Shown in pieces: positions 9,001 to 12,000 of a DNA stretch of 14,680 nucleotides. The stretch lies in contig JANNXQ010000044.1 of assembly GCA_031409655.1 (NCBI GenBank), positions 1-14,680 of the forward strand, given 5' to 3'. This DNA is from Chthoniobacteraceae bacterium. Its GTDB lineage: Bacteria; Verrucomicrobiota; Verrucomicrobiia; Chthoniobacterales; Chthoniobacteraceae. The position numbers were made by a program. Position 1 is the first letter of the stretch. Each line of letters begins with the position of its first letter.

Positions 9001-12000
9001 CCTCGAGGAAGTGCGCGGTATGGTGAAGGCCACGGCCAGCAAGGCCGCCGAACAAAGTGCGCCGATCACCGGCGACACCGAGGCCTTGCGGCTCCTGCGC
9101 ACGGATCTCGAAAAATGGCTGCATGTGCTGGCGCGGGCCACTTTCCGCGCGCTCACGCGGCTGGAACGCACCGAGGACGGGGCCAAGGTGGACGTGACGC
9201 CCTCGGATCTCGCGAAGGCGCGGGCGATCAATCTCGCCGGGATCGGCGAGACCGTGCTGGATCTCGCGGAGCCGCTCTCCGTGGCTCCCGAGGGTGGCGG
9301 CGAACCGCTCGGGAAAAAGGCCGGCATCACCCCGGCGCTGGTGGCGCGCGTGGATAAGCTGTGGGCCGACTACGGCGTCGCCGTGGGCGCGCCCGCCAGC
9401 GCCCGCGCCCGGCGCAAGGCGCTCACCGGGCAGATCCCCAACGACGCGCGGAACATCGAGGCCAAGTGCGCGGAACTCGACGATCTGGTGATCCAGTTCG
9501 CCGACACCGCGGCGGGCGATGAATTTGTCGGCGCGTGGTTCAATGCGCGCAAGGTGGTGGACCTCGGCCGCCGCGCGGCGAAACCAGCGCCGGTGCCGGC
9601 ACCCGCCCCAGCACCGAAGTAGGACGGTCCCGGCGTGCCGGAGCGTGGAGCGGGTGCGGGGGGCAGCGAGTGGGCTATCGCCACCGTCGCTCGACGGGGC
9701 AAAGGGAGAGAGCCGCCTGCCGGCATCGCGGCGCGCTACGCCGCAGAAGGTGGCGGCGGTGATCTATGGAGAGACGGTTGCCCCGTCCCTTTGCTCGGAA
9801 CGGAGAGGCAACGGGATGCGCCAGGCTCCGCAGGGGCCTGTCTCCGCTGCCATGCCTTCGTCAACGCGCTACCGCGCGCTCTACTTCGCCGCCTTGGTCA
9901 GCGCCTTGCGGGTCTTCTTGATGATGCTCCGCACGGTGTCGCTCGGCTGGGCGCCTTTGTCGATCCAGTAGTCGGCGCGGGTCAGGTCGATGTTGGTGTT
10001 GTCGCCTTCCTTGCGCGGATTGTAGTTGCCGATGATCTCGATGAACTTGCCATCACGCGGGCTGCGCTGGTCGGCGACGACCACTTTGTAATACGGATTG
10101 TTGAGCGAGCCTTCGCGGCGGAGACGGATGGAGACCATTGGGATTTAGGATTTCAGATTTAGGGATTTGAGATTGGAAAATTTTCAGCGGGGACGGAAGC
10201 GACTTGGGCCGCCGGAGCGGGCCATCATCTTCTTCAAGCCACCCATGTTCTTCATCATTTTGCGCATCTGGGAGAAGCGCATGAGGAGATCGTTTACTTC
10301 GGTGACTGAGGTTCCACTCCCACGGGCGATACGCTGGCGACGGCGGGCATTCAAAATGTCCGGTTTGGTCCGTTCGCCGGGCGTCATGGAAAGCACTATC
10401 GCTTCCACCCGTTTGATCTGTTTCTCGTCAATCGAAAGTCCCTTGATTTGGCTCATCCCGGGGATCATGGCAAGGACGTTTTCCAGCGGCCCCAGCTTCT
10501 TGATCATTTTGAACTGGCTGAGAAAGTCGTTCAGATCGAACGAAGCGGTCCGCATTTTCTCCTCCATGCGCCGCGCTTCGTCCTCGTCGATCGCCTCGGC
10601 GGCTTTTTCCACAAGGCCCAAAATATCGCCCATCCCGAGGATGCGCCCGGCGAGACGATCGGGGTGGAAGGGCTCGAATTGATCGAGCTTTTCACCGAGA
10701 CCGGCGAATTTGATCGGACGCTGCGTGACCTCGCGCATCGAGAGCGCCGCACCGCCGCGGGCGTCGCCGTCGAGCTTCGTGAGGACGAGGCCGGTGATGG
10801 TGAGCGCCTGATGAAAATGCGTGGCCACGCTGACGGCCTGCTGGCCGGTGGCGGCGTCCGCGACAAGGAGGACTTCCTGCGGATTGAGGTATTCCTTGAG
10901 GTGCTTGATCTCGGCGACGAGCGCTTCGTCGATCTCCTGGCGTCCGGCGGTGTCGAAGATCTGCACATTGCCGCCCTGCTCGGCGGCCCAGGCGACGGCT
11001 AGCTTGGCGACTTTGAGCACGTCTTTTTCGCCCGCGGGCGGGAGGAAAACGGGGACGCCGATCTGCTTGCCGAGGGTGGCGAGTTGCTCGATGGCGGCGG
11101 GACGCTGGAGATCGCAGGCGATGAGCAGCGGGGCGCGGCCTTGCTTTTTCAGCCAGCTCGCGAGCTTCGCGGACGAGGTCGTTTTGCCCGCTCCGTTCAG
11201 GCCGACCATGAGGATGCGGGCGGGCTTGTCGAGAATCAGCGGCGAGGCATCGCCGCCGAGGAGCGCGGTGAGTTCGTCGTGGAAGATTTTGACGATCTGC
11301 TGGCCGGGCGTGACGGAGCGGAGGACCTCTTCGCCCAGCGCCTTCTCTTTCACCCGGGCGATGAAACCCTTGGCGACATTGAAATCGACGTCCGCCTCAA
11401 GCAACGCCATCCGCACCTCGCGCAAGGCGTCGGTGACGTTCGTCTCAGAGATTTTTCCATGACCGCGGAGGTCTTTGAAAATGTCCTGAAGCTTATCGGC
11501 GAGGAGTGAAAACATGAAAGCGGGGCGGGAGCGTAGCGCAGAAAGGCGCGGCGTCGAGCGCGGGATCAGGGAGGGTTTTCGGGGGGCTCTGCGTTTGGCG
11601 TTTGGCGTTAGAAGTTTAAAGTTTGGCCTTCTCCCGCTCTCGGCAGCGGTTCGATCCCCCGGTCGGAATGAACGTCAAACTTCAAACGCCAAACGCCAAA
11701 CGCTAAACGGCCTGATTCCGAGGCTCCTTATTCCACCAGCCGACCGTCCTGCATCTCGATGCGCCGATCGCCACGGGCAGCGAGATGGCTGTCGTGCGTG
11801 ACCACGACGAGCGTTTTGCCGCCTTCGCGGACGAGATCGAGAAGCAGTTCGACGATTCCTTCGCCCGTCTTCGAGTCAAGATTGCCGGTCGGTTCATCGG
11901 CAAAGACGACGCTGGGCTCGTTGATCAGCGCTCGGGCGATGGCCACCCGCTGCTGCTCGCCGCCAGAAAGCTCCGGGGGCAAGTGGTGCAGCCGATCTTG

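Follow-up and report, generated by a model that had tools for sequence, protein, structure and literature searches.

This locus raises the question of how a bacterium with a large genome builds its 30S ribosomal subunit without RimM, RimP, Era and RsmG, on which almost every bacterium relies for assembling and finishing that subunit. The window, by which we mean the whole 14,680-nucleotide stretch of DNA analysed (contig C44), belongs to a Chthoniobacteraceae metagenome-assembled genome, G000 (6.85 Mb, 306 contigs, 94.9% complete, 5.26% contamination), and its bS16 is nearest to Chthoniobacteraceae records. From the family of the organism's relatives (Chthoniobacteraceae) and from genome size, we infer a free-living habit. 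An earlier note placed ffh and rpsP here, as the coordinates and Pfam matches bear out, and claimed that all four genes are missing from the genome as part of losses running through its lineage. The features at issue are:

10184-11515, minus strand: ffh (SRP54), matching Pfam SRP54_N, SRP54 and SRP_SPB; the gene that opens the ancestral ffh-rpsP-khpA-rimM-trmD-rplS cluster
9881-10138, minus strand: rpsP (bS16), matching PF00886 (E 6.7e-24); the last cluster gene remaining here
9623-9880, no strand: GC-rich intergenic stretch of 258 nt, read from sequence; in relatives khpA occupies the position after rpsP
8885-9622, minus strand: 245-aa ORF of unknown function after rpsP, with no Pfam match

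The front of the cluster is conventional, ffh lying immediately upstream of rpsP in 73 of the 79 related loci where an rpsP ORF was called. Beyond rpsP, G000 departs from its relatives: the adjacency of rpsP and khpA, kept in 71/80 relatives, is broken, and the next gene is the 245-aa ORF, not khpA, rimM or trmD. The 258 nt in between are too small for rimM (about 500 nt), and khpA, trmD and rplS lie apart on contigs C206, C12 and C28 with no rimM beside them, as the earlier note had stated. Since most relatives keep khpA next to rpsP, we read the scatter of rpsP, khpA, trmD and rplS in G000 as a local rearrangement, separate from gene loss, and relatives with an intact cluster are better evidence for the deletion of rimM than G000's own cluster. 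The 245-aa ORF itself was considered as a RimM stand-in and rejected, since its position after rpsP is not conserved in relatives. Of 8000 candidates scored, none was a homologue at E<=0.001; there were only Atlas matches under 0.9, no match in 80 related loci, and one broken paralogue on C242 of the same genome.

In the relatives, the rimM of the canonical trmD operon, which sits between rpsP/khpA and trmD, is missing. Both khpA and trmD were present in 32 of the 80 rpsP loci, and in 26 of these 32 the gap between them was at most 178 nt, which leaves no room for rimM; the same gap measures about 500-660 nt, and contains rimM, in 4 outgroup loci. The other six gaps held thioredoxin-like, methyltransferase, cyclase-like or patatin-like genes or no gene at all (the cyclase and patatin names come from reading the sequences). 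As to rimP, nusA-infB lies upstream of rbfA in 18/20 rbfA loci from across the phylum, and none of these 18 had a RimP match before nusA; the genes found there vary in 18/18 loci read, except for rpsT-like ORFs in three. The nusA-infB-rbfA-nrnA run of G000 (C183) is likewise preceded by a divergent gene that is not rimP, in keeping with what the earlier note said of it.

Directly before nusA, 14 of 19 genomes carry a G-rich/C-rich hairpin with a T run, starting 35-108 nt upstream; G000 is among them (C183, about 12518-12545). The search pattern, which asked for a GGG...CCC-type stem and a T run lying 4-130 nt ahead of the first gene, was written after the sequences had been seen, and it matched 0/425 and 18/3861 control gene starts. 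No Rfam family matched the nusA leader. The arrangement is that of the rimP-leader attenuator as described by Naville and Gautheret (2010; PMC2965389), in which such a hairpin and T run precede the first gene of the nusA-infB operon and NusA controls premature termination, except that the first gene here is nusA and not rimP. Judged by its sequence, the nusA hairpin appears to be the rimP-leader, remaining without the rimP gene.

Searches of the whole genome gave the same picture; all absences reported here are profile negatives. In G000, PF01782 found no RimM at E<=10, and two PRC-barrel models gave nothing above cut-off. Home-built profiles were then run across 90,985 six-frame ORFs. The best E value was 2.1 for a profile of 7 diverse RimMs (leave-one-out E 1e-24 to 1e-40), from which an eighth locus that yielded no translation was left out, 1.2 for one of 10 planctomycete RimPs and 0.24 for one of 4 RsmGs, whereas a profile of 13 same-phylum Eras, taken from 14 loci, matched only the G domains of Der, TrmE, EngB, IF2, HflX and others. 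A GTPase census of the genome left no Era-like G domain unassigned. The absence of the four genes therefore holds up, as does the companion claim that RbfA, RsgA, RsmA, YbeY and RsfS are kept: RbfA, RsmA, YbeY, RsfS and bS21 were found, together with Der- and Obg-type GTPases and an RsgA-type GTPase, the last identified from sequence motifs and a PF-free phmmer match rather than from a family scan. This sole RsgA-type GTPase is a long form adjoining engB (C56 10324-12172, minus strand). RsmA (KsgA; C127 19676-21352, plus strand) extends into a C-terminal domain that, as named from sequence, resembles a NUDIX hydrolase, and ybeY occurs in two near-identical copies (C60 and C269, one at a contig end), probably a strain duplication in the bin.

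For the phylum, RimM, RimP, Era, RsmG and RbfA were all searched in the same 221 Verrucomicrobiota genomes (G000 and 220 that are at least 90% complete), and each family search was positive in 10 control bacteria; the resulting counts are samples in which related genomes are not independent. RimM was found in 0/221 above cut-off, with one weak match containing stops, so the claim that it is absent from Verrucomicrobiota stands. The absence extends to three neighbouring phyla, with 1/131 in Planctomycetota (contaminant-like, G334), 0/81 in Chlamydiota and 0/91 above cut-off in Omnitrophota; the same search found RimM in 5/5 outgroup MAGs and 2/5 MAGs from other phyla. RimP, which the earlier note reported missing from the class, was found in 1/221 (contaminant-like, G135) and is thus missing from the phylum. 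Era, reported missing from the order, is missing from the whole class Verrucomicrobiae (0/74); it was found in 75/221 genomes overall and in 75/147 of other classes, where it is absent from families f18 (0/35), f25 (0/19) and f19 (0/3). This search used E<=1e-45 with 10 candidates scored per genome, and outside G000 it would overlook an Era that scores above the 116-bit cut-off but below about 150 bits. RsmG was found in 109/221 genomes. Its loss stands for the order, with 0/131 in a separate sample of Chthoniobacterales (16 families), but is not class-wide, as 28/73 class relatives retain it. On the whole, our independent counts agree with those given before and go further.

Several isolated matches were set aside. 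The RimP of G135 is a short ORF whose best model is PRK02001 and which lies beside an lpxD whose product is only 34% identical to the LpxD of G000; we read it, without proof from a tree, as a contaminant from a gut bacterium, presumably one of the Bacteroidales. The planctomycete RimM of G334 lies next to a transposase on a contig of 1.9 kb and is likewise read as foreign, again without tree proof; we take it to be alphaproteobacterial. RimM matches below cut-off in 14/91 Omnitrophota appear to be fold noise, the three long-ORF loci read (L353, L355 and L241) all being SecD. RimM also went unmatched in single MAGs of Cloacimonadota, Auribacterota, UBP3 and Poribacteria, too few to interpret, and the loss may extend further. 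Outside the class, Era and RsmG are nearly complementary, with families f18 and f25 having RsmG without Era, and f23, f24, f26, f28, f29 and f30 having Era without RsmG; f39 and f31 carry both.

The depth of loss therefore differs from gene to gene: RimM is lost from Verrucomicrobiota, Planctomycetota, Chlamydiota and Omnitrophota, RimP from the phylum Verrucomicrobiota, Era from the class and from some families elsewhere, and RsmG from the order, with patchy loss elsewhere. The absence of all four as a common trait of the order Chthoniobacterales is supported. Of the four, RsmG, a 16S methyltransferase that is often lost, has the weakest claim to the name "assembly factor".

We are confident that these genes have truly been lost. 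An incomplete, contaminated bin in 306 contigs could in principle lose genes through faulty assembly or binning; at the level of the lineage this reading is already refuted and has a negligible probability, given that RbfA is present in 220/221 of the same genomes and that single-contig genomes (e.g. G189, G063, G114 and G060) also have no RimM, RimP or Era. RsfS, too, was found in 5/5 genomes checked. A somewhat less far-fetched, though still very improbable, idea is that these genomes do encode RimM, RimP and Era, in forms that escape the searches through divergence, relocation or fusion. Planctomycetes show that relocation occurs: their RimPs have diverged (14/131 genomes above cut-off and 3 more below) and were not adjacent to nusA in the 10 loci read. 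Against this, an alignment of those same planctomycete RimPs, run on the 221 Verrucomicrobiota genomes, returned just the contaminant-like match and noise (the 3 checked were LacI-type regulators), and the GTPase census leaves no spare Era-like domain. Sister groups score 173-234 bits for Era and 81-179 bits for RsmG with no intermediate scores reported, and the ancestral slots, the khpA-trmD gap and the nusA leader, are closed.

Loss of such factors has been published for CPR, Mollicutes and Chlamydia. For CPR, Amikura et al. (2025; PMC12641178) give 0.4% each for rimM and rimP, 8.5% for rsmG and 19.4% for era, as opposed to 94.9, 92.3, 97.7 and 97.3% (rimM, rimP, rsmG, era) in non-CPR bacteria. 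The CPR (Patescibacteria) repertoire resembles that of G000, which has none of the four, but CPR have genomes of 0.5-1.5 Mb and shortened rRNA, whereas the genomes here reach 6-7 Mb and the 16S rRNA of 5 relatives is not shortened (1512-1568 nt; G000 has no assembled 16S). CPR have in addition given up rsfS and, in many cases, rbfA, der or obgE; the lineage here keeps RbfA, Der, ObgE and RsfS. The available portion of that paper's main text leaves Verrucomicrobiota and PVC unmentioned and notes few factors in one Omnitrophota genome. If this is the preprint whose supplement, according to the earlier note, might hold the pattern, the material available contains no per-genome or per-phylum gene table, although the heat map in its Fig. 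2a may show it.

Complete loss of era, as here, is described for Chlamydia, Dependentiae and CPR by Gruffaz and Smirnov (2023; PMC10582724), who list Planctomycetota as patchy. Their account, in the part available, credits the loss only to extremely genome-reduced groups and does not mention Verrucomicrobia; here a whole class, large genomes included, has no match. Mollicutes (Grosjean et al., 2014; PMC4014445) are alike in that RimM and RimP occur in few species and RbfA in all, and differ in being reduced parasites, most of which keep Era and RsmG. In the open literature, which is what our search covered to the exclusion of subscription sources, nothing was found that reports PVC bacteria with large genomes to have lost RimM, RimP or Era. 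What would be new is the same loss uncoupled from genome reduction, and this may be known outside the literature searched. What we report is an absence, one that can be read off public orthology tables, but it places a loss formerly tied to tiny genomes in a class some of whose members have large genomes and can be cultured, and it moves the RimM loss of Chlamydia back to before host dependence. Building a 30S subunit without Era, RimM and RimP also becomes a bench question, one that bears on minimal in vitro ribosome assembly; Verrucomicrobium spinosum is a class member with transposon data and gene deletion (PMC12283558). In the part of that study available to us, the 519-gene list of V. spinosum orthologues of E. 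coli genes contains no rimM, rimP, era or rsmG, and as it contains no rbfA or rsgA either it is uninformative. The supplements list trmD as non-essential in V. spinosum, and VSP_RS18515, which by gene order and length would be the NrnA gene following rbfA, is essential in both V. spinosum and P. limnophila (PMC12283558).

The account that we favour, and to which we would give about an even chance, combines a stepwise, real deletion of the four genes with a factor-light maturation of the 30S subunit. Judging from distribution, the earliest loss would have been that of rimM, in a common ancestor of Verrucomicrobiota, Planctomycetota, Chlamydiota and Omnitrophota; rimP would have gone in the verrucomicrobial ancestor, leaving its leader hairpin ahead of nusA; the ancestor of the class Verrucomicrobiae would have lost era, as other families did independently; and rsmG would have disappeared in the ancestor of the order, besides many losses in other groups. 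RimM may merely speed the loading of uS19 and uS13 on the head, and RimP the uS5/uS12 step at the central pseudoknot, in which case both steps could proceed unaided, carried by the ribosome's own parts and RbfA. Assembly of the subunit would be carried by the remaining RbfA, RsgA, RsmA and YbeY. Era's hold on the 16S 3' tail would most likely have been taken over in the class by a platform pocket lined by bS21, which we propose because the class hardly uses Shine-Dalgarno (SD) pairing.

For the head, this account fits reports that RimM is non-essential, the head proteins binding spontaneously (PMC13246957), and that its loss is suppressed by extra RbfA or by changes in h31, h33b, S13 or S19 (PMC9032327). 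In uS19, Gln56 is a RimM contact (PMC8073977). Three residues away, Pro59 is found in 44/45 outgroup sequences vs 12/32 PVC-group sequences (3 ambiguous rows set aside), yet it is retained in 4/5 Omnitrophota/Auribacterota and 22/31 CPR sequences although both groups have no RimM, and we therefore rejected it as a strict signature of RimM loss. The pattern fits relaxed constraint and not a required change, and is weak evidence at that, PVC being one clade. The best PDB match, 7ooc, which we take to be Mycoplasma pneumoniae, likewise departs from Pro59; no chain from the PVC group was conspicuous among the best-scoring PDB entries for either uS19 or uS13. The h31, 530 loop and 3' tail of 16S rRNA are ordinary in 5 relatives, as is uS13 in comparison with solved structures, and no compensating change in 16S, uS13 or uS19 was demonstrated beyond relaxed positions.

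That result would also be expected under pure relaxed selection, in which slow growers tolerate a slower and less exact 30S maturation with no compensating change, and the independent recurrence of the losses (Era in the class, f18, f25 and f19; RsmG in many families) speaks for it as well. We nevertheless think it improbable. Depletion of Era is lethal or severe in every species covered by the available part of Gruffaz and Smirnov (PMC10582724), and Era is missing from 74/74 class genomes of very different sizes and habitats; moreover, a conserved site before rpsU suggests that the class has rewired its 3' tail.

The evidence for the latter comes from SD use. In G000, SD motifs are at control level (0.11 vs 0.13, 1028 genes), and the same is true or nearly so in 5/6 class relatives, whereas 7/7 genomes of other classes, two of them without Era, are above control (21-42 genes each, with heuristic starts). 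A lack of SD sites was reported previously for Verrucomicrobiales (PMC10798248). The anti-SD is nonetheless present in 5/5 relatives, and an SD site precedes rpsU in 66/80 loci vs 2/42 for rpsP, 5/67 for khpA, 3/23 for trmD and 5/41 for ffh. The pairing energy before rpsU has a median of -8.3 and a best value of -12.6 kcal/mol (80 loci, 16-nt window). In G000, rpsU (C131 46655-46846, minus strand) has such a site and, with rsmA, makes up the 2/20 translation genes that pair below -6 kcal/mol; rpsP in our window has none (-0.9 kcal/mol with the 16S tail). Several rpsU loci without an SD site encode a bS21 with a long C-terminal tail.

An SD-less genome that retains its anti-SD and an SD before rpsU is the arrangement described for bS21 autoregulation and anti-SD sequestration in Bacteroidia (McNutt et al., 2023; PMC9976891), where the 16S tail is held in a bS21/bS18/bS6 pocket. 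There the rpsU SD pairs below -13 kcal/mol and the sites here are weaker (median as above), as computed with different programs; Bacteroidia also keep RimM, RimP, Era and RsmG, unlike the Verrucomicrobiae studied here. The rpsU site of Verrucomicrobiae is thus a candidate for bS21 autoregulation outside Bacteroidota, of which we found no statement in the open literature, subscription sources lying outside our scope. By analogy, it hints that bS21 may hold the 16S tail that Era normally binds, Era's KH domain binding the tail after h45, anti-SD included (PMC10582724). We rejected the idea that losing SD use strictly entails losing Era: two Era-less f18 genomes use SD sites (0.40 and 0.42 vs 0.11 and 0.09), and SD-less Bacteroides keeps Era. 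A link of SD loss and bS21 to Era loss is neither necessary nor sufficient, since Era is retained in Bacteroidia and was lost in f18 despite SD use.

The proposed bS21 pocket has a competitor in non-orthologous replacement, that is, loss of the genes and takeover by unrelated proteins, as has been proposed for uL30 and a small PVC signature protein. PVC bacteria have no uL30, with a possible substitute known (PMC7203096), and G000 shows this known PVC trait in having no rpmD between rpsE and rplO (C232 18320-19418). Some substitute function is to be expected, given that Era is essential in E. coli, and V. spinosum counts 100 proteins without a known function among its essential ones (PMC12283558). 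No replacement factor for the lost genes was found, however: the vacated slots hold no conserved new gene, khpA being followed by trmD or unrelated genes and the genes before nusA varying, and CPR and most Mollicutes also manage without RimM and RimP. We regard replacement as a serious but minority possibility. Returning to factor-light maturation with a bS21 pocket, a bolder version, which we put forward only tentatively, is that Verrucomicrobiae have a distinct 30S maturation pathway, with a head assembled without RimM from the PVC ancestor onwards and a convergent bS21 pocket (or an undescribed essential protein) replacing Era; the same package (no SD use, an SD only on rpsU, and no Era, RimM, RimP or RsmG) may then have arisen twice, here and in CPR.

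The remainder of the window encodes two large secreted-type proteins (624-7331, minus strand), one of which (3081-7331, 1416 aa) has many tandem repeats and Ig-like modules, a SpoU/TrmL-type methylase (12486-12968, minus strand), and a membrane protein with an adenylate-cyclase domain (12836-14263, plus strand).
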